From an uncultured Gemmataceae bacterium (lineage in GTDB: Bacteria > Planctomycetota > Planctomycetia > Gemmatales > Gemmataceae): a stretch of 64,000 nt of DNA. The position numbers and the translations under genes were made by a program. Under the pieces are notes generated by a model. That model did not search any database, was not told the origin of the DNA, and saw only the letters and a program-made list of their open reading frames with translations. Location: contig CAVVPN010000004.1 in NCBI GenBank assembly GCA_963750165.1, forward strand, positions 736,001 through 800,000, written 5' to 3'. Shown piece by piece: positions 14,769 to 31,869 of this stretch. The stretch's first letter is position 1. Each line of letters opens with the position of its first letter.

Positions 14769-15242
14769 ATGTCGCAGCGATGGCGCGTTCCGGTGTTGCC
14801 GGTGTTGACGGTGCTGCTGGCGCTGACGGACCCGGCCTGGGGTTGCAGCGAACGCAGCACGGTCTGGCACTGGGACCACTGCTGGCTGAGCGTGCCGCGC
14901 TGGCTGGTGCTCGCCGCCGCCTGCGCCGGCTGGTGGTATCTGTGCTTCCACCGCCTTTTTCCCTGGCTGCTGGCCCCCGACCGGCCGCAGCCGCCCTGGC
15001 CGCGCGTCGCCTTCCGCCGCGCCGTGGCCCTGTTCTGGTTACTTTCCTGGGTGACGTTCGTCGCCCTGTTCGCCTGGCTGTCGGACGAACTGCTGTTGCT
15101 GTCGGCGCGGTCGCTGCCGAACCTGGGGCCGTGGCTGAGTCAGCAGGCGCTGAGCCTGCTGGTGCTCGCGGTCGGCCTCGGCGGTGCCGCCGTGCTCTGG
15201 CTCGCCGGCCGTCAACGCCGCCCCGGGATGCGTGAATCCTGA
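14769..15242 (+). CDS. Hypothetical membrane protein, first gene of the tubulin-like locus
   Basis: Signal-like N-terminus plus about 3 TM helices; stop 15 bp before the tubulin-like ATG. Confidence 0.7.
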   Translation: MSQRWRVPVLPVLTVLLALTDPAWGCSERSTVWHWDHCWLSVPRWLVLAAACAGWWYLCFHRLFPWLLAPDRPQPPWPRVAFRRAVALFWLLSWVTFVALFAWLSDELLLLSARSLPNLGPWLSQQALSLLVLAVGLGGAAVLWLAGRQRRPGMRES

Positions 15243-15257
15243 ACGAGGGAACCGGCC

Positions 15258-18200
15258 ATGACTGACACACCCCCCACCGCGCCGCCCGGCGTCCGCCATG
15301 TCGCCCCGACGGTCCTGATCGGCCTGGGCGGCACCGGCAAGGACGTGCTGTTGCGCGTCCGCCGCATGTTTTACGAGCGCCACGGCCTGCGCCCGGACGG
15401 CGGCGTCGGCTACCCGATCATCGGCTACCTGGCCCTGGACACCGACCCGGGCGCCCTGGACCGCATCGAGGGCGAGGGCGCCAGCGATTTCGTGCTGCGG
15501 GCGATCCAGTTCAAGCGCGGCGGCACCCCGGAGGCGCTCGACTGCACGGTGGCGCCGCGGCAGCTGGAAGATTATTTCCGCGGCGGCGAACAGCAGTTCC
15601 CACACCTGTTCCGCTGGCTGCCGGCGGAGCTAAAAAAGTTCGGGGCCAACGGCATCGTCGGCGGCGCCGGCCAGAACCGCCTGTTCGGCCGCCTCGCATT
15701 CTTCCACCACTTCACGCGCATCCGCGACACATTGAAAGCCCGCATCAGCCAGGTTGTCGCTGATGCCACGCTGCCCACTCGCCGCGCCGCCTGGCTGTCG
15801 GAACTGCGCACGCCGGTGGAGGTCAACCCGCAGCGCCTGGAAATCGTGCTGGTCTACTCGCTGGCCGGCGGCACGGGCGCCGGCATGTTCCTGGACATGG
15901 GCTGGCTGGTCCGCCACGTCGTCGAGCGCGAGCTGGCTCTGGCCGGCGTGCAGCCGTTCTTCACGCACTACGCGCTGCTGCCGGAGGCGTTCGTGCAAGA
16001 GGCCGCCGAGGGCCGTCGCAACGTCACGCTCAAGCCGGAGCAGCGCCGCAAGATTCAGGAGAACGCCTTCGCCTGCCTGCGCGAGATGGAGTATTTTTCC
16101 ATGGCGCCGCGGCAGGCGTTTGACCTGACCATTCCGCAGGCCGTGCCCGCCGCTGTATTCCCCCCCAAAATGGGAGGGGATACAGCGGCGGGCGGCGTCT
16201 CGGAGCCGTGGTATGGCGTGCAGTGGGAACTGGATGGCCCCGTCGTCGAAATCCACAGCTCGCCGTGGGATACGTGTTACCTGCTTGGCGGCGGCAACGA
16301 GGCGATGGGCAACCAGTGCCTGCCGCCGGCGGAGCTGTACCAGATGATCGCGGAGCGGCTGTTCCTGCAGTTCGCCGGCGGCCAGTTCGGCAGCCTGAAG
16401 GAGTCCGCCCTGAGCAACGAGGTGGACGAGACGCTGCAGGCGCTGGCCGACGAGGTGCGCGATGAGCGCGGCCAGATTTTGTATCGCCATTTCCTGAGCA
16501 AGCGCTTCAGCACCTTCGGCCTGTCGCAAATTTTCTTTGACCGCGAGCGTATGCGGCGGGCAGCGGCGCACCGGCTGGCGTGGAAGCTGGTCGCCGAGTG
16601 GTGGCTGCGGCCGGCGGACCTGGCGCCCGTGGAGTTGCAGCGGCTGGCGAAGGAGGATTTGCACGGGGGAGCCGGCGGCCGCGGCGAAGTTGTCACCGCG
16701 ACCGGCCTGGCTGGTGACAGCCCATTGTCACTGGCATACGACGCGCTGCGCGATCAGATTCTGCTGGAGGACCGCGACCAGGACCGGCATCGCACCTGGT
16801 TCCAGGTGGTTCTCGACGATGAGCAGCAGCGCCGCCGCCGTGTCGAGGAGGGCGATTTTGACACGCGCACCGAGGAAGCGATCACGCCCTTGCTGCAAGC
16901 GCACCTGCACCGCCTCAAGCGCGTCCGCGGCGCCGCGGGAGAGACGGGGCTGGCCGTCCGCAGTTTCGAGCGGCACCGCCAGCAACTCGAAGAGGAAATC
17001 GAGCGCCGCCTGCGGGCGCTGGTGCTGCACCGCCTGCAACAACTCGGCGTACGCGGCACCTTGCAGTTACTGGAGGAATACGCCAACCTGCACAAAAACG
17101 AGCTGCAAAAAGCCCAGTATTTGGCGGCGAAGAAGGCCGCGCCGCTGCCGCCCTACCCAGACCGCGTGAGCGACGCCCGCCGCCTACCGCTGGCGTACTA
17201 TGCGCGCACGGCGGTACGCCTGGAGTTGCAGCGGGCGCTGCGGCAGGTCCGGGACCACCTGCTCAAGGCGTTCCACCGCGAGGCGCTGCCGGAAATTCGC
17301 GCCTGCCTCGACCGCGTGCAGCAGCGCATCGGCCTTGACCAGCGCGAGGGTTCTTACGCCGATCTCTTGCAGCGCTTTCAATCGCTGCTGGAAGCGCAGA
17401 CCGACGCGATGTCCGGCGTGCAGCACTACCTGGCCCAGCGCTTCCGCGAGTTGCGCACGCAAGACGCCGCCCAGGAGCGCACCATCGGCCTGCTCGACCA
17501 GCTGAGCGATGCCGCCTACGACGCCCGCATCCGCCAGCTGATCGCCCCGGAGAGTCCCGGCACCGCCCTGGACATGCACGAACTCGGCCCACGTGTCGAG
17601 CGGCTGGTCTTGCAGCAACTGGCCGCGGTCGATCCGAAGTGGCAGCGCGTGCAGTCGGTCGGCGACCTGGCCCTGACGCTGCTGGCGCTGCAGCCCGCGG
17701 AACTGCCAGCGCAACCGGTCCTCGACGAACTCGCCGCCGACCTGGCCGCGGCGTGCGAGGCGCTGCTGGCGAATTTTGCCGGTGAAACCAGCGCCCTGGA
17801 GCAGTTCAACCGCGACGTGCATTTGATGCGCGTGCGGCTGGACAATTTGCGCACCTACTCGGGTTGTTTTTTGCGGCGGACGCGCGAGCCGGAGGCACAG
17901 CGGCTGGACACCGCGGCGGTACTGCGGCTGGGCGTCGCCGACTGCAAGGGCCGCGCCGCCGAGGAGTTTCGCCGTCAGGCCGAGGCCGCCGGCTCCGACC
18001 GCCAGTTGCTCGGATTGCAGTCCTTCGAGATCGATGGCGACCGCATCGTACTTTATCAGGAAAAAACCGGCCTGCCGCTGTGCTATTACTGCGGCCTGGA
18101 GACGCTGGGCGAGCTGTACGCCCGGTCGCTGCGGCAGCGCGAGACGCACCTGGACTACCACGCGCTGCGCGGCCGATTGCCGGAGGTGCGCCGGGCGCAG

Positions 18201-18917
18201 CCGGAGCGGCAGAAGCACCTGGCCCAGTGTGTCGAGCTGGCGCTGTACGGCGTCAGTACGGGCGTGTTGCGTTACGAGCAGCGTTTCGAGCAGCAGCGCT
18301 TCTGGCTGGCGGTGAAGCAGGGCTACGGCACGCCGTTGACGGTGCCGCTGGGCGGTCAGCTGGAAGAGGTGATCGCCTACCTGGCCGAGCACGCCAGCGA
18401 CCGGGCGGAGTTGCAGCGGCAGCTGGACCGCTGGTTCCAGGCCGCCGCCCAGAACGACGGTGAGGCACTGGTGCTGCTCTGGTGCGCCGTGCAGGATTTT
18501 CACGAGGACATCCGCGGGCGCGTGCAGCGGCACATCGACCAGGGCCGGCTGACGAGTTCCGAGGCCCGCCACCACCCACTGCTGGCCGTGCTGGAGCAGC
18601 GCATGCTGTCGCGCGTGCGCGAGCGGCTGCTGGGCTTGCCGGGCGGCCCAGGCTGGCTGGAGTCGAAGCTCGACCGCGGCGGTCTGGCGGCGGAGCTGGA
18701 CGGCGACGACCTCGACCAGGCCCTGCGGCTGCGGGCGGAACTGCTGCGCGACTGCTACGCGCCGCTGTCAGAGGCGGTGCCGGTGCCGGTGCTGCGTCCG
18801 GGCGCCCGGTTGGACCGGCGCGTCTTCGGCGACCTGATGGGGCCGCGCCCCGGGCCGCGGCCGGCCGCCGCGGCGCCGCTGCGGCGCTTCCAGCAGGCGG
18901 AGGATGAGTCGGTGTGA
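15258..18917 (+). CDS. Tubulin/FtsZ-like GTPase (Tubulin_2/FtsZl1-type) with long helical C-terminal region
   Basis: VLIGLGGTG, ALDTD, GAGQNRLFGR, SLAGGTGAGMFLD (tubulin signature variant), ENAFACLREM; 1219 aa. Confidence 0.9.
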   Translation: MTDTPPTAPPGVRHVAPTVLIGLGGTGKDVLLRVRRMFYERHGLRPDGGVGYPIIGYLALDTDPGALDRIEGEGASDFVLRAIQFKRGGTPEALDCTVAPRQLEDYFRGGEQQFPHLFRWLPAELKKFGANGIVGGAGQNRLFGRLAFFHHFTRIRDTLKARISQVVADATLPTRRAAWLSELRTPVEVNPQRLEIVLVYSLAGGTGAGMFLDMGWLVRHVVERELALAGVQPFFTHYALLPEAFVQEAAEGRRNVTLKPEQRRKIQENAFACLREMEYFSMAPRQAFDLTIPQAVPAAVFPPKMGGDTAAGGVSEPWYGVQWELDGPVVEIHSSPWDTCYLLGGGNEAMGNQCLPPAELYQMIAERLFLQFAGGQFGSLKESALSNEVDETLQALADEVRDERGQILYRHFLSKRFSTFGLSQIFFDRERMRRAAAHRLAWKLVAEWWLRPADLAPVELQRLAKEDLHGGAGGRGEVVTATGLAGDSPLSLAYDALRDQILLEDRDQDRHRTWFQVVLDDEQQRRRRVEEGDFDTRTEEAITPLLQAHLHRLKRVRGAAGETGLAVRSFERHRQQLEEEIERRLRALVLHRLQQLGVRGTLQLLEEYANLHKNELQKAQYLAAKKAAPLPPYPDRVSDARRLPLAYYARTAVRLELQRALRQVRDHLLKAFHREALPEIRACLDRVQQRIGLDQREGSYADLLQRFQSLLEAQTDAMSGVQHYLAQRFRELRTQDAAQERTIGLLDQLSDAAYDARIRQLIAPESPGTALDMHELGPRVERLVLQQLAAVDPKWQRVQSVGDLALTLLALQPAELPAQPVLDELAADLAAACEALLANFAGETSALEQFNRDVHLMRVRLDNLRTYSGCFLRRTREPEAQRLDTAAVLRLGVADCKGRAAEEFRRQAEAAGSDRQLLGLQSFEIDGDRIVLYQEKTGLPLCYYCGLETLGELYARSLRQRETHLDYHALRGRLPEVRRAQPERQKHLAQCVELALYGVSTGVLRYEQRFEQQRFWLAVKQGYGTPLTVPLGGQLEEVIAYLAEHASDRAELQRQLDRWFQAAAQNDGEALVLLWCAVQDFHEDIRGRVQRHIDQGRLTSSEARHHPLLAVLEQRMLSRVRERLLGLPGGPGWLESKLDRGGLAAELDGDDLDQALRLRAELLRDCYAPLSEAVPVPVLRPGARLDRRVFGDLMGPRPGPRPAAAAPLRRFQQAEDESV

Positions 18918-19045
18918 TTGTCTGGCCGGCCCAAAGTGCGAACTTGTGTATAAGTATCTATTCCGGTTACTCTACTGGGTGGTTCGGTTGGATGAGTGAA
19001 TTGCCGTCCTCGTCAGGATGGCGCGCCTTTCACAAGGAGTCTTCC

Positions 19046-20173
19046 ATGAAAGCCGTCACGCTGGTGGTGTTGAGCGGAGCCCTGTTGAGTTGGGTGCCGC
19101 AGGCGCCTGCCCAGACGGAACTGCCCCCGGCCGCGAAGAAATTGCTCAAGGAATATGAGGAGAGCATCGTCGAGCTTGACAAAAAGTACGAGGCCGAGGT
19201 CAAGAAACGCGGGGAAAAGACGACCGTGGAACTGAAGAAGGTGCAGGATCGGATGTGCAAGGAGGCCAAACTCGACGAGGCGGTGGCTGTCCGCGACCTG
19301 ATTCGCAGCATCCAGGCCGGGACCAACGAGGCCTCCGCCGCCGACCTGCCGGCCGCCGCCCGCGAAATTTACAAAGTGTATCAGGATGACACCGCCGCGA
19401 TCCTCAAGAAGGCCGAGACCGAGGTCGAGGTCCGGCGAAACCAGGCCACCGTGGGGCTGAAGCGGTTGCAGGACCTGTTGTGCAAGGAAACCAAGCTCGA
19501 CGAGGCCATCGTCATCCGTGACCTCATTCGTTCGCTTCGGGACGGGGTGACCAACACCCTGGCCGATCCGGGCTACGTGAACAACCCGGCCAACGACGTC
19601 GGCAAGGTGTTTTACTACACGGTCACCGGCGTCACCAACGGCGGCTCGATCTACGGTACCGATATTTACACCACCGGCTCGCACCTGGGCATGGCGGCGG
19701 TCCACAGCGGCGTCCTGAAAGCCGGCCAGCAAGGGGTCGTGAAAGTGACCATCTTGCCGGGCCAGAACAACTACACCGCCTCCATGCAGAACGGCGTTAA
19801 CAGTAACGGGTATGGGAATTGGGGGGTGAGCTTCAAGGTCGAACGGGTCTACGGGTTGGCGGGGAAACGTGTCAGTTCCGTCCTGGCCGACCCGGGCTAT
19901 GTGAGCAACTCGGCCAACGACATCGGCAAGGTGTTTCACTACACGGTCACCGGCGGCAACAACGGCCAGATCTGGGGCACCGGCGTCTACACCACCGGCT
20001 CGCACCTGGGCACGGCTGCGGTTCACAGTGGTGTGCTGCGAGTCGGCCAAAAGGCCATCGTGAAAGTGACCATCTTACCCGGCCAGAACAACTACATCGC
20101 CTCGCCCAGGAACGGCATCACCAGTAATGGGTATGGGAATTGGGGGGTGAGCTTCAAGGTCGAGCGGAGATAA
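19046..20173 (+). CDS. Secreted protein with two LCCL domains
   Basis: Signal peptide; two copies of I(Y/W)GT..YT.GS.L..AAVHSG...VKV...PGQ..Y.AS..NG..S..YG.W..SF. Confidence 0.85.
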   Translation: MKAVTLVVLSGALLSWVPQAPAQTELPPAAKKLLKEYEESIVELDKKYEAEVKKRGEKTTVELKKVQDRMCKEAKLDEAVAVRDLIRSIQAGTNEASAADLPAAAREIYKVYQDDTAAILKKAETEVEVRRNQATVGLKRLQDLLCKETKLDEAIVIRDLIRSLRDGVTNTLADPGYVNNPANDVGKVFYYTVTGVTNGGSIYGTDIYTTGSHLGMAAVHSGVLKAGQQGVVKVTILPGQNNYTASMQNGVNSNGYGNWGVSFKVERVYGLAGKRVSSVLADPGYVSNSANDIGKVFHYTVTGGNNGQIWGTGVYTTGSHLGTAAVHSGVLRVGQKAIVKVTILPGQNNYIASPRNGITSNGYGNWGVSFKVERR

Positions 20174-20366: not shown

Positions 20367-20643
20367 CCTGGGCCGTGAACCAGATCGCCGACTTTCTCAG
20401 CCGGGAGGCGGTGCGCGGATTGGATAACGCGGTTTGGCTCCGCCAGGACGCGCAGGCCCGTGACCGCTTGAACGCACGGTCGGGCCTGGTGAAGCGCATC
20501 AAAGCTCTGCACCCCACCCCGGGATCCTCTTTGTAAAAGCCACGGAGCCACCATCCTTGTCCGTGTTCCCCATCCCGTCCCAGGGCCAGGGGACTTGCGG
20601 ACGCCGCGGCGGTTGGCGAGAATACCACGCGGAGGGTCAGGCC

Positions 20644-21351
20644 ATGCCGCTGCACGATTGGACAGACGAACGGGGCTGGGACAGCGTCCATCCGTTCTGG
20701 TTGGCGTACCTCGTCGAGTGGGTGCAGCCCCGCTTGCCGGAGGGGTATCGGGCGTTCCTCGGGGGCGTGCCTGCCCTGACGGTGGCGACGGGCAACGGCA
20801 AGCCCGACGTCAGCGTTCGCCACTGGGAGCCGCGTCCGCCGACCGAGGCAGTGACAACCGATACTGCCGTCCTGGAACCGGACCTGGAAGCGAGCGTCGT
20901 CGTCCGCCTTGACCCGCAACCGGCCGTCCACGTCGATTTCCACGGGCAACTCATTGCCGCCATTGAGATCGTCTCGCCGCGAAACAAGGACCACCTCGGC
21001 GCGAAGGATACGTATGCCCAGCGCTACCTGGGCTACCTCCGCCTGGGGGTGCATTTGCTGCTCGTCGATGTGCTACCGCGGCCGAAAGACTTCTCGTTCT
21101 CCGACATCATCACGGGCAGCCTGGGGCTCGAATTGCCGCCGCTGCCGGCCCCGTTTGCTGTGGCCTATCGTGTGGACGAGGTCGTCCCGGTCGGGAGCGA
21201 CATGGGCAGCCTCGTGGGCCTCTGGCGCCGTCCGCTGCAGGTCGGCCAACCCCTGCCACCGCTGCCGCTGCCGTTGAGCGTCACTCGGGCCGTCCAGATC
21301 GATCTGGAGCAGACGTACGCACGGGCGGCGAAGCGGGCTTACCTCGATTGA
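20644..21351 (+). CDS. DUF4058 family protein
   Basis: MPLHDWT..W..H..W, AAIEIVSPRNK, HLLLVD, IDLEQTY. Confidence 0.85.
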   Translation: MPLHDWTDERGWDSVHPFWLAYLVEWVQPRLPEGYRAFLGGVPALTVATGNGKPDVSVRHWEPRPPTEAVTTDTAVLEPDLEASVVVRLDPQPAVHVDFHGQLIAAIEIVSPRNKDHLGAKDTYAQRYLGYLRLGVHLLLVDVLPRPKDFSFSDIITGSLGLELPPLPAPFAVAYRVDEVVPVGSDMGSLVGLWRRPLQVGQPLPPLPLPLSVTRAVQIDLEQTYARAAKRAYLD

Positions 21352-21394
21352 GCTGGGGCGTCGATCAGGAGCTCTTGTTGTTCAAAGGGCGCTG

Positions 21395-21545: not shown

Positions 21546-21626
21546 TAGACAGCCGTCGCCAGCCAGAGACTCCCAGCGCCAACCCGCCAGGGCAGGCAGA
21601 CGGCGACAGAAGCAGAAAGTCCCCCG

Positions 21627-24600
21627 GTGAAGGATTCCGAACCCTTGTCCGCGTTCCCCCCCACCCCCTGCCCCGTCTGCGACAACCGCCTGGCGGTCTG
21701 CTGGCGCTTCCGCGCCGACGACCGCCACTGCGGCCTGTGCGGCCAGCGCGTGCTGCGGCTGCGCGTCAGCCCCGCGACGCCGGACGGGGCGGTCTGGCTG
21801 TACCTGCACCCGACGGAGGCGCTGCGGTTGCGGCTGACGTGGGAGCGCGGCCCCGACGGCGGCCCGGCGCAAGACCTTCCGCCCCGCGCTCGACCTCGCC
21901 CGCAGTGGCGCCCACTTCACCGACGACCGCCTCGGCAGCCTGGCGTTCGCACTGGAAGAACTGCCCGCGGACAGCCCCGCCGCCGACACGGTGACGGTGC
22001 GACTGCGGCCGCTGTTCGAGGGCCTGGAAGCGCTGACGCTGCCGCCGGCCGGCGTCGCGGGCCAGCTGCACCTCGCCGCCAGCACCGGCACGGAAATCCG
22101 CCCCGCCCTGCTGCTGCCGCCGCCGCAGGAGATCGCGCTGGCCTGCACGGACCCGAGCATCGCGCGTCGCAGCGGTGTCTGGCAAATCTACCAGCGCGGC
22201 CCTGGCGTGCGCGTGCCGATGCGGCTGACGACGCCGGTGCCGCTGTGGGCCGGCGACCTGCGCATCGCCGAGGACAGCGACCCGGACGTGAGTGTCGAGG
22301 GCCTCGGCGACTTCGTGCTGCTGGAGCCACAGCGGCCGCACCCCTTCGCCCTGCGCGTCAACAGCACGCACTGGGCGTCGCAGGCGGCCCACAACTTCAA
22401 GTTCTTCGTCAACCTGGCGACGCTCGGCCCGCTGACGCTGAGCGGCGAAATCGCCCTGCTGGAGGGCAGCAAACTCCTCATCGGCGGCCCGAATCCGCGG
22501 CTGCTGGAAGTGCAACTCGGCCGCAGTTTCGCCACCAGTTTCACGCTGACCGCCAGTGCCGAGGGCGCTGCCGAGGAGGACGGCATCACGCTGGTCGATT
22601 ACACCGTGCTGCGGCAGAGCGGCATCGAGGCGGATGACGAGCCAGACTGGCTGCGCCTGCTGACGCCGGCGCGGGCGGACCTGCCGCTGACGATCCGGCC
22701 GCACGGCCCCGAGCGGCCCGCCGAGCAGTTGGTGCTGGAGGTGAGCACCGGCCGCCTCGACCGCCAGCGCTACGCCGGGGCACTGCTGCGCGGCGCGGTC
22801 GAACTGATCGATTCGCGGCGGCGGCGCTGGACCTGCGAGGTCCACGCCACGGTGACGCGGCCGCCGCGGCTGGGCAGTCCGGTGGCCATCGACTGGGGCA
22901 CGACCAATTCGTGCGCCGCCTACTGCGTCGGCGCTGTTGGCGGCGAGCCGCCGCGCTCGCTGTCGTTCGACGAGGAGCAGCAGCGCGCCCCGAGTCGTTC
23001 CCGTCGGACCTGTACTTCAGCGATCTGGACGACCCGGAAAATCCAGTCTTTTATCTGGGCCACGAGGCCGCCCGGCGGGCGCGCGAGCACCCCGAGTGCT
23101 GCCTGCGCAGCGTCAAGCGCAAGTTCCAGTTCCTCGACCAGGTGTTCGTCATGGACGAGCACCAGCGCGGCCACACCTACCCGATCACGCAGCTGGTCGA
23201 ACTGTTGCTGGAGCGGCTGGTCACGCTCGCCGAGGCCGCCCAGGGCCAGGAGTTGCACACGCTCGGCCTGACGTTTCCGACGAAGTGGTCCGCGCGCGTG
23301 CGGCACAAGTTGGAGGGCGTCACGCAGGCCCTGGCGGCCCGGCTGCAGCGGGCGCGGCAGCCGATCACGGTGCAGGTGCTGCCGCCGCAGATCGACGAGG
23401 CCAACGCCGTCGCCCTCAACCTCATCACCAGCCATCACGGTCGCGCCCTGCCCGACACCTTCCATCTCATCGCCTACGACTTCGGCGGCGGCACCATCGA
23501 CACCTCGGTGCTGGAGGTCCACCTGCCCGACGACCCGGCGGAGCTGCGGACGCGCTACATCGGCATCGGCGGCCGCCATGACTTCGGCGGCGACGACGTG
23601 ACGCGCGCCGTGCTGCTGCTGCTGCACGACCGCCTCACCGGGGCGCTGCAGCGGCGCACCGTCGTGCTGGACGACCTCACACACAAGAGCGCCTGGCTTC
23701 AGGAAATCCCGCTGGTAGCGGACGGCGAGCCGCTGCGCGAGAGCGGCCCGGGAGCGGCGCACCGCTACCAGCTGGGCCGCCGCAACTGGGACGCGCTGTG
23801 GAAGATCGCGGAACTCATCAAGATGGATTTATGCGATGCCGAGGCCGAGCCGGCCCCACCGCCCCCACCGCCGCGGCCCGCGACCGCCGCCCGGCTGACC
23901 GGCCTGGCCGACGACTTCACGCTGACCGTGGACGAGGATTCCAGCTTCGAGTCCGCCATCGCCGACGCCTTCGACCAGGAGCAGACCGGCGCGGCCGAGC
24001 CGGCGGTGTCGCCGGTGACGGATCGGCTGCGGCCGCGGCTGGCGGACCTGCTGTGCCGGGTGCAGATCCAGCCGGGGCCGGCGGAAGGCGGCGCCCCTGT
24101 GGAGGTGCTGTGGACGCTGGACGCCGTGCTCGACCCGCTGGAGGCCGAGGACCGCACCGCTTTCTTCGATGAGCTGCGCTTCACGCTGGACCACGCCTGC
24201 GAGTTCCCGCTGGAGGACCTGCACGGCACCAACCACGGCCAGCGCTACAACGTCCGCCAGCGCGTCGAGGACACCGTGCGCGAGCTGCAATGGCAGTGCG
24301 CCCAGCAGCGGGTGCAGCCGCACATCATCGTGCTGGCCGGCGGCGGCTGCCGGCTGCCGCTGGTGGCGCGGCTGATGCGGCAGTATTTCCCGAGCGACCA
24401 CGACCTGCTGTACTACCAGAAGGAGTTCGCGAAGCGGCGGGTGGCGCACGGCATGGCGAGTTACCTGGCGCTGCGACAGGTGCTGAACCTCGACAGCAGG
24501 TTAGCGCGTTCCGTGGACGTGCTGCACCACCCGCTGGGCTTGCAGAAGATGGTGCGGGCCGACGGTACCCTGCGGCTGGCGTTCGAGGCGGTGGCGCCGC

Positions 24601-24944
24601 TGGGGGCGCGCGTCAACGACCCGGGCGTGTGGCACCCGTTCACGGCGCGGGCGTCGCAGCTGCGCGATGCGGACGGTCAGTTGCGGTTGACGCTGTTCGT
24701 GCAGGACTGGCGTGGCGGCCCGCAGGAATTCGGCGTCTGCGACCTAACGCGGCCGGCGGCGACCGCGGAGCCGGGCTGGGCGGCCGGGCCGCTGCCGTTC
24801 GCGGACGGGGCGACGTACCAGGGCGGCCTGCGGCTGTGCGGCGTGCAGCGTGTCGAGGTGCGGCTGTCGCTCGGCGATGCCACTTACGGCCCCTTTGTGG
24901 CGGCGCCGACTGGGGGCGACCCGGAGGCGCTGTTGCAGAGCTAG
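21627..24944 (+). CDS. Large Hsp70/actin-fold ATPase with N-terminal Zn ribbon and beta-rich Ig-like region; frameshifts ~21865 and ~22990
   Basis: Three consecutive frames join into ~1100 aa: CPVC..C..CGLCG; VAIDWGTTNS; DEANAVA; AYDFGGGTID; GGDDVT; AELIKMDL; IVLAGGGCRLP; VAHGMA. Confidence 0.85.
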
Positions 24945-25052
24945 CGCTTCGGGGTAGCGGAAGTCGCCAGACTTCCGCTTCAAAAAGGTTGGTAAAGCAA
25001 GGATTCCCGCCCGGTGGTATCATGCGGGGTAGTGGGTGACGCAACCTGGGAG

Positions 25053-26001
25053 CATGAACATGAGTATGACGAGCGAACAGGTCAGCTCCGCGAACGGGGT
25101 GAAGGCGGCACGGACCGTCTTCGTGTCCTCCCCCGCCCGAACGGACACGTCCGTTATCCGCCGGGTGCTGGAGGGGGAAGGCATCCGCGTGCTGGAGTCG
25201 GAACTGCTGGAACCGGGCCAGCTCATCCGCGAGTCACTGATCGAAGGGATACAGAAGGCCGACGCGGTGATCGCAGTGCTCGGCGACCGGAATGCGAACT
25301 CGCCCGTCTTCTATGAGTTGGGCATCGCGGATGCGATGGCAAAGCCCGTCCTGGTCGTCTCCGCGGATGCCCTCGACCCGGCCAATGACGTCGCCCTCTA
25401 CCCCTACATCCGCGCCCGTCACGACGACGAGGAAGCCCTGCGGTTCGGCCTCGTTCACTTCCTCCGCGCACCGCACCACGGCGTGAAGCCCGAGCGGGAT
25501 TACACAGCCGTGACGAAACCGATCGGGGCGGTGGTGGACGGCCTGCTCGCGCGGGTGCGGGCGGATGAGCGCATCATGCATGACGAACTGGTCAGCATCA
25601 TCGCCGTGGCGATCCAAGAAAGCGGCGTCGCTGCGCAGGCGGCCGTGTCCAGGCGGCCCGCCGGCGAGGAGATACCAGCCGACATCGCGGTGTGGTCGGA
25701 TGAGCTGACGTCGTTCGTCGGCAACCCGCTACCCATCGAGATCCGCTCGTCGTTGGTGACGCAGAGCGACACGGAGGCGGCGGCGCAGACCATCATGCGG
25801 GCGATGATCGGGGCGCGGGCCCGGTGGGGCCTGATCCTGTACCGGAAGGCGACGCCGGACGCACTCCACGCCCTGAACAAGTTCCCCGTGTTGGCGATGT
25901 CCATCGAGGACTTCCTGGAGGGGCTGCGGACGCGGTCCTTCGCCAGGATCGTCACCGACTTGCGGAACCGGACCGTGCACGGGGTGCGGTTCGATGGCTA
26001 A
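25053..26001 (+). CDS. TIR/nucleoside-deoxyribosyltransferase-like domain fused to PD-(D/E)xK-like C-terminal domain
   Basis: VFVSS...IQKADAVIAV...VFYELGIADAMAKPVLVV; C-terminal ADIAVW...PIEIR; start ambiguous (25036-25066). Confidence 0.7.
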
Positions 26002-26643
26002 GGCGTGCAGAAGGAAATAATTCGTCCGATGTACATCTGCTCCGCCGGCGAAGTCCAGGTTGGGCGGGCGCTTTCTGGCCAAGTTGGACGAATTATTTTC
26101 TTCCGTTCGCCTAAGTTCTCGCAGAAGAAGATCAAGGACCATTTCGCCAAGTCCGACGCGGCAACCACGAAGGCGGAGAAAGGGAAGCACCTTGAAGATC
26201 TGGCCGTCTACCTGTTCGAGATGGTCCCGGGCATCAGCCTGTCCGCCCGGGACAAGAAGAATGCCTACGAAACCGAAGAGATCGACGTGGCGTTCTGGAA
26301 CGAGCAGCACGCCAAGGGTTTCAAGGCGCTGAACTTCCTCATCCTGGTCGAGTGCAAGAACTGGTCGTCGCCTGTCGGTAGTATGGAGGTGAACTGGTTC
26401 CTCACAAAGATCAGGAACCGATCCCTGGACTTCGGCATCCTCCTCGCGGCCAATGGGATCACCGGGAGTGACGAAGACAAGAAGCAGGCACATGACGTGA
26501 TCTCCAAAGCCCTCACGGACGGCGTTCGCATGATCCTGCTGACCCGCGCCGAGATCGAGGCGCTGACCGACGGCGACGAGTTGGTCAAAATGGTGAAGCG
26601 GAAACTCTGCGAGTTGGTCGTGTCGGGTACCGTCTGGTCGTGA
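25994..26643 (+). CDS. Mrr-like restriction endonuclease, 5' end interrupted by a MITE
   Basis: KGKHLEDL..EEIDV..LVECKNW; removing 26002-26114 restores ATG GCT AAG TTC (MAKFSQKKI), overlapping the upstream stop. Confidence 0.85.
26002..26111. mobile_element. 110-bp MITE / internally deleted IS
   Basis: 26-bp imperfect TIRs GGCGTGCAGAAGGAAATAATTCGTCC / GGACGAATTATTTTCTTCCGTTCGCC, flanked by TAA duplication (25999-26001, 26112-26114). Confidence 0.88.
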
Positions 26644-26659
26644 CGTGTCGGGGGAGAAC

Positions 26660-26917
26660 ATGAAGACCCGTATTGTGGTGATCGGCAACTCGCAGGGCAT
26701 TCGCATCCCGAAGCCGCTGCTCGAACAGACGGGCCTGTCCGGGGAGGTCGAGATCAGCGCGGAGGACGGCACCCTGGTGATCCGGCCCGTCAAAAAGCCG
26801 CGGGCCGGCTGGGCGGTGGCCCTCCAGCAGATGGCACAGCGCGGCGACGACGCCCTGCTTGACGAAGCGCCGCCGGGTTTGACTGCCTGGGACGAGGGCG
26901 AGTGGGAATGGCGATAA
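26660..26917 (+). CDS. mazE: AbrB/MazE antitoxin
   Basis: IGNSQGIRIPK; upstream of PemK toxin. Confidence 0.92.
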   Translation: MKTRIVVIGNSQGIRIPKPLLEQTGLSGEVEISAEDGTLVIRPVKKPRAGWAVALQQMAQRGDDALLDEAPPGLTAWDEGEWEWR

Positions 26918-27231
26918 ACCGTTTCGAGGTCTACCTGATCAACCTCGACCCGACGGTCGGCAGCGAGATCAAGAAGACGCGGCCCTGCCTGGTCGTTTCG
27001 CCGGACGAGATCAACCACAACATCCGCACGGTGATCGTGGCGCCGATGACGACCAGGGGACAACCTTACCCGACGCGGGTGCCCTGCCGGTTCAAGGGGA
27101 AGGACGGCCAAGTGGTGCTCGACCAGATCCGGGCGGTGGATCGGTTGCGGTTGGTCAAGAAACTGGGGAGGATTGACGCCAGGACGGCGACGGCGGTGCT
27201 CGATGTCCTTCAGGAGATGTTCGCGCCTTGA
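26908..27231 (+). CDS. mazF: PemK/MazF toxin
   Basis: LDPTVGSEIKKTRPCLVVS, DQIRAVD. Confidence 0.93.
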   Translation: MAINRFEVYLINLDPTVGSEIKKTRPCLVVSPDEINHNIRTVIVAPMTTRGQPYPTRVPCRFKGKDGQVVLDQIRAVDRLRLVKKLGRIDARTATAVLDVLQEMFAP

Positions 27232-27423
27232 GCGAGAGAACTATCCCGAATCAGCCGCAAATGCCTGTCCGGTGTAGCTGGTCAGGAATTTCTTGTTTCT
27301 TCGTTGCCCGGTCCTGTACCGTGGGGAGGTTCAGATCGTGGTCGCGGCAGATTCGTGGAGCGGGAAGAAGTAGGTTGTGATGTTTGCAGCGCGGACCTCG
27401 AATTTTCATTGCAAGGAGTTACC

Positions 27424-29553
27424 ATGTCGAAATCCTCTGCGGTCGTGAGCTTCGTTCAACACCTAGCTCTCGCCCTGGCAGTCGTGCTGCCGTTGACGGC
27501 GCCCCTGGCAAACGCGGGGGAAACGAAGCTGCGAACCAAGCTTCTGGATACGTTCGAACAGGGGCACGGCAGCGTAGACCCATTTCTGCCCTCCAGCGTC
27601 GCATCGTTGGCCTTGAGTCCTGACGGAACGCTGCTGGCGACTGGGGGCGGTGATAAGACCGTCAAGTTGTGGGACGTGGCCAGGCGGCGCGTCATCGCCA
27701 CCTTGCGTGGACACGCCGCACGGGTCCGCCTGGTGGCCTTTTCCGCCGATGGCAAGACGCTCTTTTCCGCAAGTAATGTCGAAGAAAAAATCCAAAAAAA
27801 AACAAGGCTGGTCGGAATGCTCAAGCTGTGGGACGTGGCAACCGGAAAAAACTTGGCCACGTTGGAATACCCTGATGGTCACGTATCTGGGCTTGCCGGC
27901 AGCCCTGACGGTACGCATTTCGCTGTCGCAACGGGAGGCACGATCGAAATCGTGGACTTTGCCACCCGCAAGCCAATCGCTTCTTTGGGCAAGAAAAAAG
28001 ACCTAAATGCCTTTAATGGCAGTGGTGGTCCAATCGCCTTCAGCTCGGACGGTAAGACCCTGGTCGCTGGTCCCTTTGGGCTCGGGAACAACGTCAAGGT
28101 ATGGGACGTGGCCGGCCGCGAGCTGAAGGCGGATCTCCGCATCGATAACGGTGGCGCAGAGTGGACACTTTCGCTGGCCCTGAGTCCGGACGGCAAGAGC
28201 GTGGTTGCGACGCGGCCTCTTTGCATCGAGGTCTGGGATGTGGCCACCGGCAAACAAAAGCAAAAAAAGGACTTCCATGACAAGAGAGAAGAGCGCGTGA
28301 GAGGCCTTTATGTCGGCGCCGTCCTCGCCAACGACGGCAAGACTCTGGTCGGTTTCAGCCGGCCCGTAGATCGCCCACGGAAGGTCATTTTCTGGGACGT
28401 GGCCAGCCAAAAAATAACCGCCGAGTTGGATGGTGACGTCGATATCTACACGGGTGTCGCTGTCAGCAGGGATGGCAAGACGATTGCAGGCGTGAATCAT
28501 TCGAACGACGAGATCAAGGGTGAAATCGTGCAGGTGTGGGACGTGGCCCGTGCAAAACGGACGGCCCGGATGGTCGGGCGCACGTGGTACGGGGCCAGGG
28601 GTTTGTTCTTTCGCCCGGATGGCAAGGTCCTGGTGTCCACGCACGACCCCTTCTCTTTTTTCTGGGAAGTGCCCACGGGCAAGAACTTGCTCAGCTTTCC
28701 CCCCGGCCTGACCGGCGTCGCCTTCGCTTCGGACAACAAGACCTTTTTCTGCTCCGCGGGCGGCCTGAGCCGGAGCAGCCATCTTGAGCTCCACGAGTTA
28801 GCCACCGGCGAAGAACTGCGGCTGGATGAGTACATCCTGAGCCACAAAGGCATGATCCAGTGCATGGCGTCAACCCACGACGGCAAAACCCTGGCCACCG
28901 GCTCGGATGACAAGACGATCCGCATCTGGGACGTGGCCGGGCTCAAGAAGAAGAAACGCCAAGGCGATGAGGTGCTCGCCGGGTTCAAGACGGTGCAGAT
29001 TCTCACAGGCCACGCTGACGAAGTCCGTTTTGTGACCTTCAGTAAAGATGGCAAGCGGCTGGCCTCGGCGAGCACAGCGGGAGATTTCAAGCTGTGGGAC
29101 GTCGCCTCGGGCAAGGAGCTGAGCACCCTCCTTCTGGTCGAGCCGGGGAAAGAGAAAGCGGATGTTGGGGTTGGAGAGGGACGAGGCTCTCCCGTGGCGA
29201 TCAGTCGTGACTTCAAGACCGTGGCTCTGGGTACGCGGACGGGTGAGGTCAAGTTGTGGGACGTGGGCAGCGGCAAGATCCTGGCCAAGCACCAGGTCCT
29301 CAAGGGCCAGGCCGTGACGGCGCTCGCCTTGAGTCCGGACGGCAAGACGCTGGCCACTGCCGGCGGCGACAGCACGATCCAGCTGTGGGACGTGGCCAGC
29401 GGCAAGAGCCTGGCTTCGCTCAAGGCGCACACGGCCGTCGTTCACTGCCTTGTGTGGAGCCCAACGGACCCCATCCTCGCTTCGGCCGGCGCCAATGCGG
29501 ATGCCACCATCAATCTCTGGGAAATCGTCCGTCCGGAAACAGCGGACAAGTGA
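27424..29553 (+). CDS. Secreted WD40-repeat protein
   Basis: Signal peptide; many SPDG..LAT.G.D.T.KLWDVA repeats. Confidence 0.92.
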   Translation: MSKSSAVVSFVQHLALALAVVLPLTAPLANAGETKLRTKLLDTFEQGHGSVDPFLPSSVASLALSPDGTLLATGGGDKTVKLWDVARRRVIATLRGHAARVRLVAFSADGKTLFSASNVEEKIQKKTRLVGMLKLWDVATGKNLATLEYPDGHVSGLAGSPDGTHFAVATGGTIEIVDFATRKPIASLGKKKDLNAFNGSGGPIAFSSDGKTLVAGPFGLGNNVKVWDVAGRELKADLRIDNGGAEWTLSLALSPDGKSVVATRPLCIEVWDVATGKQKQKKDFHDKREERVRGLYVGAVLANDGKTLVGFSRPVDRPRKVIFWDVASQKITAELDGDVDIYTGVAVSRDGKTIAGVNHSNDEIKGEIVQVWDVARAKRTARMVGRTWYGARGLFFRPDGKVLVSTHDPFSFFWEVPTGKNLLSFPPGLTGVAFASDNKTFFCSAGGLSRSSHLELHELATGEELRLDEYILSHKGMIQCMASTHDGKTLATGSDDKTIRIWDVAGLKKKKRQGDEVLAGFKTVQILTGHADEVRFVTFSKDGKRLASASTAGDFKLWDVASGKELSTLLLVEPGKEKADVGVGEGRGSPVAISRDFKTVALGTRTGEVKLWDVGSGKILAKHQVLKGQAVTALALSPDGKTLATAGGDSTIQLWDVASGKSLASLKAHTAVVHCLVWSPTDPILASAGANADATINLWEIVRPETADK

Positions 29554-29738
29554 ATCCGTCGAGCGGAACAATCTTCGTAGTCGTGTCTGAAACAAGTCAG
29601 CATCCATGCTGATAAACGGGACGCGGACCGTTTCGGCGCGGCAACCGCAACCAGGGCCGAACCGGGAAACAAAGGGGTCAGCGTAGATTATCGAGCTTTC
29701 CCCAAAGAGTGTTGAAGTCGAGGGTGAGGAGTGCAGAT

Positions 29739-29835
29739 TCCGAACCAACCGCTGCAGCAGACCCGCCCCCCCATTGAGGTGTTGGAGATGTTCAGGTCAC
29801 TCAGGGGGGCGGGCTGCTGAGCTATGGCGTTCGGC
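29739..29835 (+). other. Integron attC recombination site
   Basis: R'' CCGAAC, 5-nt spacer, L'' GCTGCAGC ... L' GCTGAGC, 6-nt spacer, R' GTTCGG; arms GCTGCAGCAGACCCGCCCCCC / GGGGGGCGGGCTGCTGAGC pair with extrahelical G and A. Confidence 0.8.
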
Positions 29836-29952
29836 TACGCTATCAACGTGTGTCGAGATGCGAGTTGCTGGGTAGGAGAAAGGGCGCATTCAACAATTAA
29901 GAATCGGAAATGGTTAAGACTTCAGAAGTGCTCACACGAGGAGAATTCCGTC

Positions 29953-30159
29953 ATGACCTTCAAGACCGTGGAAGGCGTGCTTCATCCGGACGGCACGCTG
30001 GCCTTGCCGAAGGAGGAGTTACCGGACCATGCCGTGCGCGTCATGGTGACACTCCTGGAGGCGACCGATGACGTCGCACTGGCCGAGGTGGGCGATTACC
30101 ACGAGCAGCTCAGGGATTACGAAGAGCGATTGGCTCGGGGAGAAGTCCGGTGGCAGTGA
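29953..30159 (+). CDS. Small putative antitoxin
   Basis: 68 aa, overlaps the downstream MazF start. Confidence 0.65.
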   Translation: MTFKTVEGVLHPDGTLALPKEELPDHAVRVMVTLLEATDDVALAEVGDYHEQLRDYEERLARGEVRWQ

Positions 30160-30489
30160 AGCGCGGTGAAGTCTGGCAGGCGGATCTGTCGCCCACGCGC
30201 GGCACCGAACAATCGGGGGTCCGCCCCGTGCTGGTCGTGCAAACAGACCGGGCCAACCCGCACAGCCCCCACACCATCATCATTCCGTTCACGACACGCG
30301 TGCGAGTGAAACTTCTGCCCAGTCACGTCCTCGTCCCTGCCGGGGAAGGGGGTCTGACGCAGGACTCGGTGGCGCTGGCCGAGCAAATCCGGGTGGTTGA
30401 CCACGGCCGCCTCCTCAAGCACCTCGGCGATCTGTCGGCCACGCGGGTGCAGGAAGTGGACGACGCACTCCGCGATCCTCGACCTGTAA
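30150..30489 (+). CDS. mazF: Second PemK/MazF toxin; probable indel ~30473
   Basis: RGEVWQADL.PTRGTEQSGVRPVLVVQ, AEQIRVVD; a frame switch gives a typical ...ILDL* end at 30489. Confidence 0.88.
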
Positions 30490-30589
30490 GAAAATCAAAG
30501 AGAAAGCAAAAAGAGATCAGGTTTAGTTTACTGAAGTGAATTGGGGATAAAAAAGGGAGAAAAAAGGGGACGAGCACGAATGGGGACGG

Positions 30590-30651
30590 AAAAAGGCGAC
30601 GGGCACGTTTGTTTGTCTCAATTGTCCAAATGTGCCCGTCCCCCCCTTTTC
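30590..30651. repeat. Imperfect inverted repeat (GACGGGCAC type)
   Basis: AAAAAGGCGACGGGCACGTTT ... AAATGTGCCCGTCCCCCCTTTT. Confidence 0.6.
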
Positions 30652-30756
30652 CGCCCTTCGGAAGGGTTTGAGGAGGCGGGTAGGGCTTGCTTGGGCGTTT
30701 GACAGCCCTTCCCCTGGCCTGGACAATTCAATGTCATCGCCCGGGGAGACCATCCG

Positions 30757-30969
30757 ATGACCCCTGCACACCGCGTCGAAACCGTCCTCTCGGAAGCCGG
30801 CAAGCTGTCGCTCGACCGGCTCCCCTTCCGGGCCGGCCAGGCGGTCGAGGTGATCGTCCTGCCAGCGCCGGCCCCGGCGCCTGCTAGCCAGCCGCTCCGC
30901 GGCACACTCCTCCGCTACGACCGGCCAACCGAGCCGGCCGCCGAGGCTGACTGGGACGCCCTCCGGTGA
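30757..30969 (+). CDS. Small putative antitoxin of PIN pair
   Basis: LPFRAGQAVEVIVL...DWDAL; GTGA overlap with the PIN fragment. Confidence 0.7.
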   Translation: MTPAHRVETVLSEAGKLSLDRLPFRAGQAVEVIVLPAPAPAPASQPLRGTLLRYDRPTEPAAEADWDALR

Positions 30970-31060
30970 TCATCCTGGACACTCACATTTGGGTCTGGTG
31001 GGTGGACGGCGGTGCCCAGCTGCCCGCCGACTACGCCGCGCTGCTCCAGGCGCCTGCCGA
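30966..31060 (+). pseudogene. Truncated PIN/VapC toxin
   Basis: MIILDTHIWVWW PIN N-terminus; similarity lost after ~28 codons. Confidence 0.7.
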
Positions 31061-31132
31061 ATTCAGTTCGATGGCCAGAACCCGGCTCGTTATAATGACG
31101 TGTGGTGTCCTGGAGTTCACAGGGAGAAGGCC

Positions 31133-31755: not shown

Positions 31756-31869
31756 GGTTGGTTCTGCCGCCGTTGCTATCAATCCTGACCACGGGATGCT
31801 CATCTGCGTGACCAGCTGCCGAAACCGTTGCACCCCGGCAGCGCGAACTGGAAACAAAGGTTTCCTGAC

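Follow-up and report, generated by a model that had tools for sequence, protein, structure and literature searches.

A tubulin/FtsZ-like protein of the FtsZl1 branch and its neighbouring genes in an uncultured Gemmataceae bacterium

Within the tubulin/FtsZ superfamily, FtsZl1 is the branch that has diverged furthest. It was described, also in Planctomycetes, by Makarova and Koonin (2010, Biol Direct 5:33; PMC2875224), and the portion of that paper available to us gives its architecture as an FtsZ-like domain at the N-terminus, a long coiled coil and an alpha-helical C-terminal domain, with no FtsZ_C/Tubulin_C domain. According to the same portion, the genes lie in predicted multi-gene operons with membrane proteins, a vWA gene is adjacent in the majority of cases, the operons are predicted to be membrane-remodelling machinery, and reliable sequence alignment was possible only up to helix H5. 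Fusions of kinases to FtsZl1 are likewise known in Planctomycetes from the accessible text of two reports (PMC2875224, PMC9871819). In the literature searched, no biochemical or genetic work on any FtsZl1 protein was found, and no solved structure was found there or in the PDB.

A second point of comparison is provided by the DO-GTPase/GAP1 systems, which were described as conflict systems that depend on NTP and include tubulin, vWA, Hsp70 and GrpE components (Kaur, Burroughs, Iyer and Aravind 2020, eLife 9:e52696; PMC7159879). In the available part of that paper, their operons carry one or two TRAFAC-clade P-loop GTPases (DO-GTPases) and a GAP1 protein made up of GAP1-N, -M and -C domains, and the tubulin and Hsp70/GrpE themes do not overlap and occur mainly in Firmicutes and Actinobacteria.

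We analysed a stretch of 64,000 nucleotides (the window) that encodes a 1219-aa tubulin/FtsZ-like protein, here called T (Table 1). T is an intact member of the described FtsZl1 (Tubulin_2) branch of the tubulin/FtsZ superfamily. As far as the accessible text on FtsZl1 goes, T shares its architecture, its absence of FtsZ_C/Tubulin_C and its occurrence in Planctomycetes; T is not new in kind, and the novelty implied by an earlier sequence-only reading does not stand, since FtsZl1 proteins with exactly this architecture have been known in Planctomycetes since 2010 (PMC2875224). The genes around T differ from the published operons in lacking a vWA, kinase, P-loop GTPase or OmpA partner, and a Zn-ribbon Hsp70-like ATPase is the neighbour that is conserved instead. 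With moderate confidence, we favour the reading that T acts, driven by GTP, as the assembly or switch subunit in a rare accessory gene set linked to the membrane (B, D, E and F). The set would probably be a machine of the conflict/defence or envelope type and not a division apparatus.

Table 1. Features of the locus, in window positions, with domains of T in residues
Feature	Position	Strand	Description or basis
T	15258..18917	+	FtsZl1/Tubulin_2 protein, 1219 aa, ATG start; ORF, Pfam, alignment, models
T, N-terminal part	residues ~1-445		tubulin/FtsZ-like GTP-binding domain and core helix
T, C-terminal part	residues ~446-1219		helical stalk-like region, helical domain, small alpha/beta subdomain
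B	14769..15242	+	small membrane protein, 157 aa from ATG 14769, alternative ATG 14742; tblastn, alignment
D	21618..24944	+	Zn-ribbon and Hsp70-like (actin-fold) ATPase; tblastn, HMM of 7 D proteins, motifs
E	31828..33048	+	406 aa, no assigned family; homologue of the 562-aa protein after D in L085
F	33074..35062	+	662 aa, no assigned family; homologue of the 693-aa protein at the end of the L085 set
Insertion 1, gene 1	18914..20173	+	secreted-looking, two LCCL domains; Pfam LCCL E 9.6e-29, 2 stretches
Insertion 1, gene 2	20557..21351	+	DUF4058 protein; Pfam DUF4058 E 2.8e-11; absent from related loci
Insertion 2	25036..31755	+	about 6.9 kb, lower G+C, between D and E
Insertion 2, gene	25036-26001		TIR_2/Nuc_deoxyrib_tr-like
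Insertion 2, gene	26005-26643		Mrr_cat-like
Insertion 2, gene	26645-26917		MazE
Insertion 2, gene	26902-27231		MazF, first copy
Insertion 2, gene	27304-29553		WD40 protein
Insertion 2, ORF	29824-30159
Insertion 2, gene	30150-30539		MazF, second copy
Insertion 2, gene	31339-31755		PDC-M52B-like

Sequence and predicted structure of T

The sequence-only reading had called T a tubulin/FtsZ-like GTPase, a call to be given up if no Tubulin or Tubulin_2 profile matched. When the ORF was re-read, T matched Pfam Tubulin_2 (PF13809) with an E-value of 1.6e-49 and 169.5 bits (cut-off 27), residues 19-445 covering profile positions 1-355 of 356, which is far above chance. No second Pfam domain was found in T at E <= 0.1, and at E <= 1 only a chance-level Clusterin match appeared besides Tubulin_2; neither PF00091 nor FtsZ_C/Tubulin_C matched T at E <= 1, and NCBIfam and PADLOC assigned it no family.

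The GTP-binding loops, which had been read as intact, proved to be so. The glycine-rich T1 loop GLGGTG occupies residues 22-27, GAGQNR starts at residue 136 and SLAGGTGAG at residue 201, the last containing at residues 203-209 the signature GTP-binding loop AGGTGAG (GGGTG[ST]G type). Across 18 aligned full-length homologues, G22, G24, G25, G27, G136, G138, R141, S201 and A203-G209 were invariant, including the glycines of the T1, T3 and T4 loops; this alignment contains the T of the window, in which invariant columns are therefore kept by definition. T is predicted to bind GTP, likely as an assembly or switch subunit.

Homology searches with T returned 21 matches; in 16 of them the coverage of T is 91% or more, with identities of 34-62%. 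When the C-terminal 774 aa were used as the query, only 58 representatives were found among 1.84 billion, and all of the long matches carry this region behind an N-terminal part of ~420 aa. An LPIPV-type motif is conserved near residue 1175 and is followed by a disordered tail.

An AlphaFold2 model of residues 1-470 (pLDDT 85.2, pTM 0.84) gave 284 PDB matches in Foldseek at E <= 0.001 and, among the matches listed, all were FtsZ, CetZ, tubulin or BtubA. VIA-align against tubulin, FtsZ and CetZ yielded Z-scores of 17.2-18.6 with about 215-254 residues aligned and rmsd values of 3.3-4.7, apart from one two-body outlier of 23.6. In these alignments, residues 15-424 of the model map onto tubulin 1-274 and FtsZ 12-238, so that the structural match runs on to tubulin ~274 and covers the core helix region, beyond the helix H5 limit of the earlier sequence alignment. 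The matches stop at tubulin ~274 and FtsZ ~238, and nothing in T was matched to the FtsZ/tubulin C-terminal domain. A PDB sequence search with the 18-sequence profile gave nothing usable (best E 0.27).

The claim that about 800 aa of helical or coiled-coil sequence follow the GTPase domain was borne out by an AlphaFold2 model of the ~774 aa from ~446 to 1219 (pLDDT 83.9), which consists mostly of long helices with a few short strands; helices of 60 and 46 residues form a hairpin, and helical domains follow. Foldseek found 0 matches to this region at E <= 0.001. VIA-align against 48,161 chains matched 61 residues to the C-terminal domain of RecA (Z 9.6, rmsd 1.8), the other matches being of helical-bundle or stalk types with Z <= 8; we assign this region no fold on the strength of these matches.

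T7 would be expected at the loop 374-375, between predicted helices 357-373 and 376-392. Residue 373 is Ala in T and Asp in 15 of the 18 homologues, N387 is invariant, and no conserved copy of an NxDxxD-type motif was seen in the loop after the predicted core helix. Given Ala373, and since neither an NxDxxD-type motif was seen nor a C-terminal-domain counterpart matched, the evidence does not support head-to-tail polymerisation as in FtsZ, with GTPase activation across subunits. The model suggests that T has a tubulin-like nucleotide-binding domain and core helix, with the FtsZ/tubulin activation domain unmatched and a stalk-like helical region thereafter.

Conserved neighbours of T

The sequence-only reading had seen no vWA or kinase partner for T in the window. 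This holds but is incomplete, as the conserved partners B, D, E and F are all present in the window, with two insertions splitting the set. B, in which hydrophobic segments were seen, ends 15 nt upstream of T. By tblastn, the conserved core of B was located a short way upstream of T in L004, L005, L006, L007, L009, L010, L084, L085 and L086, and B is present in every related locus with room for it upstream; in an alignment of 10 such upstream ORFs, P65, L68, W77 and P78 were invariant. None of T, B, D, E and F is matched by a PADLOC model, and B, E and F have no Pfam family.

A D-type protein of ~1,030-1,180 aa directly follows T in 9 of the 10 related loci with at least 1 kb downstream (L005, L006, L007, L008, L010, L011, L014, L015, L023 and L085), the sole exception being L010. 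With the 1177-aa D of L085 as the tblastn query, residues 20-102, 104-525 and 524-1165 were recovered from the window at 43-61% identity. The window D contains CPVC...CGLC, DWGTT, DFGGGT and GGGCRLP, and D carries the Hsp70 phosphate-1, phosphate-2 and adenosine motifs. Pfam HSP70 matched the D homologues with E-values of 5.5e-7 to 1.1e-3; the D proteins of L005 (28.6 bits) and L023 (26.9 bits) exceeded the cut-off of 20.6, and the other homologues fell below it.

E is 47% identical to its L085 homologue over 367 aa, and the N-terminal ~135 residues of that homologue have no counterpart in the window. The idea that E is a GrpE-like exchange factor arose from weak, sub-threshold Pfam GrpE matches of neighbours in L019 and L021 (E 4.7e-5) and a shared C-terminal pattern; it stayed an unproven lead, as a PDB search with the profile of E turned up no GrpE. 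F is 36.5% identical to its L085 homologue over 682 aa, and the ESM Atlas gave no usable match for it. The type of F differs by clade: in L007 and L023 it is giant and has a MIDAS-like DxSxS motif, and in the window and L085 it is an unrelated protein of 660-690 aa. The F of L023 has a weak VWA_2 match (E 8.6e-4); the DxSxS motif is absent from the F proteins of the window and L085, and no Pfam vWA match was found among the neighbours of T in the window.

There are several likenesses to the DO-GTPase/GAP1 systems, as far as the accessible text describes them: a tubulin homologue fused to coiled-coil/alpha-helical C-terminal regions, Hsp70 proteins nearby, Zn ribbons on partners, membrane components and a patchy, variable gene set. 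However, the window set is at odds with the published DO-GTPase/GAP1 and vWA schemes. It has no vWA, and a regex for Walker A (G-x4-GK[ST]) found none in 11 partner proteins from L085, L007, L023, L005 and L011, a set that included A, B and E of L007, A of L005, L011 and L023, and B, D, E and F of L085. In addition, the T set joins tubulin-like and Hsp70-like genes in one Planctomycetota operon, whereas these are separate themes in the available part of the DO-GTPase description.

In the FtsZ-FtsA divisome pair, a tubulin-superfamily GTPase is likewise encoded beside an actin/Hsp70-fold ATPase, and the FtsZ C-terminal peptide is a docking peptide. In related loci, T lies beside the actin/Hsp70-fold D, and T has a short conserved C-terminal motif before its disordered tail; by analogy, its LPIPV-type motif could be a docking peptide. 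In contrast to the divisome pair, T has no matched counterpart of the FtsZ C-terminal domain, D is a Zn-ribbon protein of ~1,100 aa and not FtsA, and the set is rare and accessory.

An alternative is that the T set is a membrane-remodelling or vesicle-forming machine with no conflict role, in which T would assemble on the membrane via B, and D would be a chaperone-like remodeller. This is the published proposal for FtsZl1 operons in the accessible text of Makarova and Koonin (PMC2875224), and it is consistent with a conserved membrane protein directly ahead of T. The helical hairpin of T also weakly resembles dynamin-like stalks, IniA (Z 8.0, rmsd 9.6, 204 aligned) and MxB (Z 5.7), but these matches are inside the noise range for helical models. 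The very patchy orthologues would be unusual for a housekeeping membrane function, and the partners differ among clades in the type of F. We therefore regard pure membrane remodelling as rather unlikely.

Insertions and integrity of the locus

The conserved set is present in the window but is split by two insertions. The first separates T from D, and its LCCL and DUF4058 genes are outside the conserved set. The LCCL protein was considered as a partner of T and rejected, as it has no homologue in any related locus; the true start of its gene is likely the Met at 19046, ahead of a signal-peptide-like stretch. The second separates D from E, which follow each other in L085 with nothing between. 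A search of the flanks of both insertions found neither inverted nor direct terminal repeats that would point to a mobile element. The second insertion makes a variable region inside the set, with two MazEF, Mrr-like, TIR-like and PDC-M52B-like genes, and these adjacent defence genes are no more than circumstantial evidence for a conflict role.

The window D spans three frames (21618-21866, 21865-22995 and 22989-24944) with no internal stop, and the frame changes occur at C4 runs near 21866 and 22990. In the same assembly, essential or housekeeping genes are frameshifted as well: in rpoC a break separates Rpb1 domain 1 from domains 2-5, and rlmI shifts at a G7 run. The frame breaks in D are therefore probably sequencing errors or artefacts. 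That D is a true pseudogene, as might be thought in a genome where 376 frames run for 900 aa or more with no stop, was rejected as the main reading in view of the rlmI and rpoC frameshifts.

These observations also bear on whether the locus is a decaying remnant, its set broken by the two insertions and T intact only since the break is recent. Genes that abut in relatives are separated here, D lies in three frames, E is shorter at its N-terminus than the L085 protein, and T has Ala in place of Asp at position 373. On the other hand, the D segments are stop-free and retain all ATPase and Zn-ribbon motifs, their frame changes are probably artefacts, and T, B and F are full length, which makes decay improbable. 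With its interrupted operon and an assembly prone to indels, the window is a poor exemplar of the set, and relatives such as L085, L007 or L023 would be better suited to experiments.

Host, distribution and role

All named relatives, both of T and of a housekeeping rRNA methyltransferase, belong to Gemmataceae or Gemmatales, in agreement with the suggested planctomycete host. The lineage had also been thought to lack FtsZ, and our searches agree: PF00091 matched nothing in the genome that holds the window (93% complete), and in 60 other genomes of Gemmataceae only 2 weak matches, both on Tubulin_2 genes. The control for this search was positive in 13 of 14 known genomes.

T-like genes (E <= 1e-20) occur in 1 of the 60 other genera of the family, and 200 other Planctomycetota genomes contain 3, which match in the N-domain only. 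Tubulin_2 genes of any kind, by comparison, occur in 57 of the 60 other genera. The window's genome has two further Tubulin_2 genes (C3:674345-678007 and C12:986165-990023), both kinase fusions; they belong to the same Pfam family as T, which has no kinase domain, and T branches apart from both in an N-domain tree (a quick tree with long branches). Because orthologues are found in only one of the 60 other genera, a non-division role for T is likely, as the sequence-only reading had supposed. That T is instead a cytoskeletal or division protein substituting for FtsZ is highly improbable: PF00091 is missing from the genome and the family, Tubulin_2 genes are near-universal there and the nucleotide-binding loops of T are intact, but the T subfamily is rare, the near-universal copies are other paralogues (here the kinase fusions), neither a counterpart of the FtsZ C-terminal domain nor a conserved T7 motif was seen in T, and Tubulin_2 is widespread also in phyla that possess FtsZ, according to our own search and the accessible text of PMC2875224.

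The reading we prefer remains an accessory, membrane-linked set, probably of the conflict/defence or envelope type, with the small membrane protein B, T as the GTP-binding subunit, D as a Zn-ribbon Hsp70-like ATPase, and E and F as further components; T would hydrolyse GTP, self-assemble and contact B and D. A bolder version, which we put forward only tentatively, is that T, the giant D and B form a two-NTPase, envelope-anchored alarm or defence machine, that T would be a tubulin fold lacking a classical T7 loop and C-terminal domain and would assemble via its helical stalk, and that the site would be a landing pad for defence and toxin-antitoxin genes.

The rarity of T argues against its being the missing division protein of Planctomycetes. 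In this clade of Planctomycetota, the proteins tied to T are a Zn-ribbon Hsp70-like ATPase and a membrane protein of small size, with neither a vWA protein nor a kinase among them.

The tubulin-like protein T and its host

The tubulin-like gene T is a real reading frame, as the sequence-only reading had it: it starts with ATG, encodes 1,219 aa and has a GC3 of 0.88, the strong third-position G+C bias typical of coding frames (the window is 66% G+C). The GTP-binding loops claimed for it are all present, GLGGTG at residue 22, GAGQNR at 136 and SLAGGTGAG at 201. In a Pfam search, T matched Tubulin_2 (PF13809), the profile of the FtsZ-like 1 (FtsZl1) family, with an E-value of 1.6e-49 and a score of 169.5 bits, where the cut-off is 27; the alignment comprised residues 19-445 and covered nearly the entire profile. 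Profile searches of NCBIfam and PADLOC assigned T to no family.

T is a member of FtsZl1 as presented in the available text of Makarova and Koonin (2010, PMC2875224), which records members from numerous bacterial phyla, Planctomycetes among them, and describes an N-terminal kinase on four planctomycete members. According to the available text of a later survey, the group was named 'FtsZ-like (Tubulin_2)' and left out of the FtsZ/tubulin trees (PMC9871819). A paper on division genes of P. limnophila describes Planctomycetes as lacking FtsZ and has the 2010 FtsZl1 paper in its references; we found no mention of the family in its available text (PMC6952346). Literature searches found no experimental work on FtsZl1. 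T was correctly observed and is a member of a known, unstudied family.

The premise of an FtsZ-less planctomycete host also holds, because the named relatives of T and of a housekeeping gene are Gemmataceae or Gemmatales, the genome contains no match to the canonical FtsZ/tubulin profile (PF00091), and the family members searched contain only two weak ones. The closest full-length relatives of T were in records titled Gemmataceae, Gemmatales or Fimbriiglobus. The independent housekeeping gene, an RlmI-type rRNA methyltransferase, had 120 relatives among the matches listed, with 70-87% identity, and all five listed with an organism name were 'Gemmataceae bacterium', a family placed within Planctomycetota. 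The host genome (9.6 Mb, 12 contigs, 93% complete) includes the window as C4:736001-800000. The search that found no PF00091 match in it was positive in 13 of the 14 genomes used as controls. One genome from each of 60 other genera of the family was also searched, and both weak PF00091 matches coincided with Tubulin_2 genes.

A partner set with two insertions

Comparison with related loci revealed a conserved gene set around T; its five members B, T, D, E and F are all in the window, split by two insertions. The earlier statement that no vWA or kinase partner of T is visible stands, and vWA and Pfam scans of the window's own proteins found no vWA domain, but the partners B, D, E and F were missed.

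Positions of the T set, its insertions and other genes discussed (window positions unless a contig of the host genome is named)
Feature	Position	Strand	Remark
RlmI-type rRNA methyltransferase	7964-9147	+	frame shift near 8829-8835
B, small membrane protein	14769-15242		conserved upstream of T in relatives
T, FtsZl1/Tubulin_2 protein	15258-18917	+	
LCCL-domain protein	18914-20173		insertion 1; likely start 19046
DNA repeats of the LCCL gene	19558-19846 and 19882-20167		
98-nt unit, two tandem copies	21388-21584		79% identical; in the gap that separates the DUF4058 gene from the D start
D, Zn-ribbon Hsp70-like ATPase	21618-24944		homology to relatives' D; frame changes near 21866 and 22990
Insertion 2	25036-31755		6.9 kb, lower G+C
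E	31828-33048		homologue of L085 E
F	33074-35062		homologue of L085 F
rpoC	C12:317718-321591	-	two overlapping frames
Kinase-Tubulin_2 fusion	C3:674345-678007	-	
Kinase-Tubulin_2 fusion	C12:986165-990023	+	two overlapping frames

In the related loci with at least 1 kb downstream of T (L005, L006, L007, L008, L010, L011, L014, L015, L023 and L085), D (~1,030-1,180 aa) lies directly 3' of T, with a gap of 0-70 nt, in nine of ten, the exception being L010. Five loci were excluded as uninformative for D, as they end at T (L009, L016, L084) or inside it (L004, L086). At its N-terminus D has a Zn ribbon; a beta-rich part occupies the middle, and the Hsp70-like ATPase shows the phosphate-1, phosphate-2 and adenosine motifs. 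Pfam HSP70 matched D homologues at E 5.5e-7 to 1.1e-3, part of them above the 20.6-bit cut-off. Immediately 5' of T in related loci is B. The remaining genes vary between clades. Upstream in L005, L007, L011, L015 and L023 is a protein of ~545-645 aa, A, which starts with Zn ribbons in all four sequences inspected (L005, L007, L011, L023); L009 carries an ORF of comparable length, 537 aa, in the same position. A giant protein lies downstream in L007, L008 and L023. A regex on L007_F and L023_F found a MIDAS-like DxSxS near the N-terminus of each; L008_F is 38% identical to L007_F. The closest complete relative, L085 (60% identity), has the order B-T-D-E-F, with E of 562 aa and F of 693 aa.

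The first insertion, between T and D, consists of two genes, one for an LCCL-domain protein and one for a DUF4058 protein. The LCCL protein has a signal-peptide-like stretch, a tandemly duplicated coiled-coil region and two LCCL domains, and no counterpart in related loci. The second, between D and E, encodes a TIR_2/Nuc_deoxyrib_tr-like protein, an Mrr_cat-like nuclease, MazE-MazF, a WD40 protein of 749 aa, another MazF preceded by a small ORF, and, with a PADLOC E-value of 1.7e-44, a PDC-M52B-like protein. This block resembles a small islet of defence and toxin-antitoxin genes that entered the set between two of its members. No terminal repeats were found flanking either insertion.

D can be read only by passing through three frames. 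It was initially taken for decayed because 376 frames of 900 aa or more in this genome, one of them of 11,412 aa, are free of stops. That reading was countered by evidence that the breaks are probably assembly errors at homopolymers: the segments of D are stop-free and keep every motif, and the frame changes fall at C4 runs. Similarly, the RlmI-type gene changes frame at a G7 run, on either side of which it is 87% identical to its homologue, and rpoC is split into frames carrying Rpb1 domain 1 (420 aa) and domains 2-5 (947 aa). Apparent pseudogenes of this genome are thus not to be trusted without resequencing.

Predicted structure of T

A PDB search found no solved structure related to T by sequence (best E 0.27). 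Residues 1-470 were modelled with AlphaFold2 on an alignment of 37 sequences (pLDDT 85.2, pTM 0.84). Foldseek matched this model to 284 PDB chains at E <= 0.001; those listed were all FtsZ, CetZ, tubulin or BtubA, with low TM-scores (0.22-0.47). VIA-align gave Z of 17.2-18.6 over 215-254 aligned residues (rmsd 3.3-4.7). Since model residues 15-424 correspond to tubulin 1-274 and FtsZ 12-238, the nucleotide-binding domain and core-helix region of T are, as modelled, tubulin-like. For the C-terminal (activation) domain of FtsZ and tubulin, the structural alignment matched nothing in this model. The candidate T7 site, residues 374-375, is the loop that joins predicted helix 357-373 to predicted helix 376-392. 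At position 373 T has Ala, while 15 of the 18 homologues aligned have Asp; N387 is invariant among the 18.

The C-terminal 774 aa were also modelled well (pLDDT 83.9, pTM 0.61), as a helical hairpin (60 + 46 residues), more helical domains and one small unit of alpha/beta type. This model had no Foldseek match at E <= 0.001, and its VIA matches were noise-level or very small. Its sequence was limited to 58 representative clusters among 1.84 billion, the long ones all sharing the architecture of T. Near residue 1175, just before a disordered tail, lies a conserved short motif of the LPIPV type.

Distribution and proposed role

Tubulin_2 genes occur in 57 of the 60 other genera of the host's family, usually two to four per genome. 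In many of these genomes two tubulin-like genes of ~1,200 aa stand in tandem on the same strand, ~3.6 kb apart (among others G023:C1:2763661 + 2767362; G009:C14:70481 + 74340; G003:C1:583301 + 586989). The host itself carries another two Tubulin_2 genes, each with a Ser/Thr kinase domain fused at the N-terminus; the split of the C12 copy over two frames is possibly another assembly indel. T-like genes (E <= 1e-20 to the whole protein) were found in only one of the 60 other genera (56% identity), which is evidence against a division role, in line with the sequence-only reading. Among 200 other Planctomycetota genomes sampled, with three candidates scored per genome, three had T-like genes, matching in the N-domain only.

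In a quick maximum-likelihood tree of 45 N-domains, with several long branches, T fell in an 8-row clade (SH-aLRT 99) nested in a 26-row clade (SH-aLRT 96) of Planctomycetota B-T-D loci and metagenome proteins; kinase fusions and a Chloroflexota group were placed outside the latter. Among the loci analysed, a D-type neighbour stands beside T only in the Planctomycetota clade and L019, with weaker D-like matches at the locus edges of L021 and L079. All three Chloroflexota loci with neighbours scanned (L026, L033, L047) have a vWA gene upstream of Tubulin_2 in place of the D-type partner. Their giant vWA protein (1,055-1,151 aa) is followed by Tubulin_2 and a second gene of ~1,100-1,190 aa, whose product has a weak Tubulin_2 match in L026 only (E 9.6e-4). 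L033 and L047 have an AAA ATPase gene ahead of the vWA gene and a radical SAM gene behind the last large gene; the scanned upstream gene of L026 encodes a thioredoxin-like protein, not an AAA ATPase. Near the tubulin-like genes of L019 (10888-12426, directly 3' of the Hsp70-like gene) and L021 (3553-5502) are proteins whose ends give a GrpE-like match that is weak and below threshold (Pfam E 4.7e-5). Their C-terminal pattern is common to E proteins of the Planctomycetota set, whose profile found no GrpE in the PDB.

T would bind GTP, and in a membrane-linked accessory complex with B and D it may serve as the subunit for assembly or switching; the contacts would come from its stalk-like helical region and its C-terminal motif. 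A conflict function, modelled on the systems in the available text of Kaur et al. (2020, PMC7159879), fits both the patchy distribution and the defence and toxin-antitoxin genes that landed inside the set. Unlike those systems, the T set showed neither a vWA domain nor, in a Walker A regex on the relatives' partner proteins, a P-loop GTPase motif; it matched no PADLOC model. Our analysis adds to the family a partner set, the structural extent of its tubulin-like fold, evidence that speaks against a role in division, and a warning about assembly indels. For the T set, a machine of the conflict/defence type or of the envelope would be more likely than one for division.
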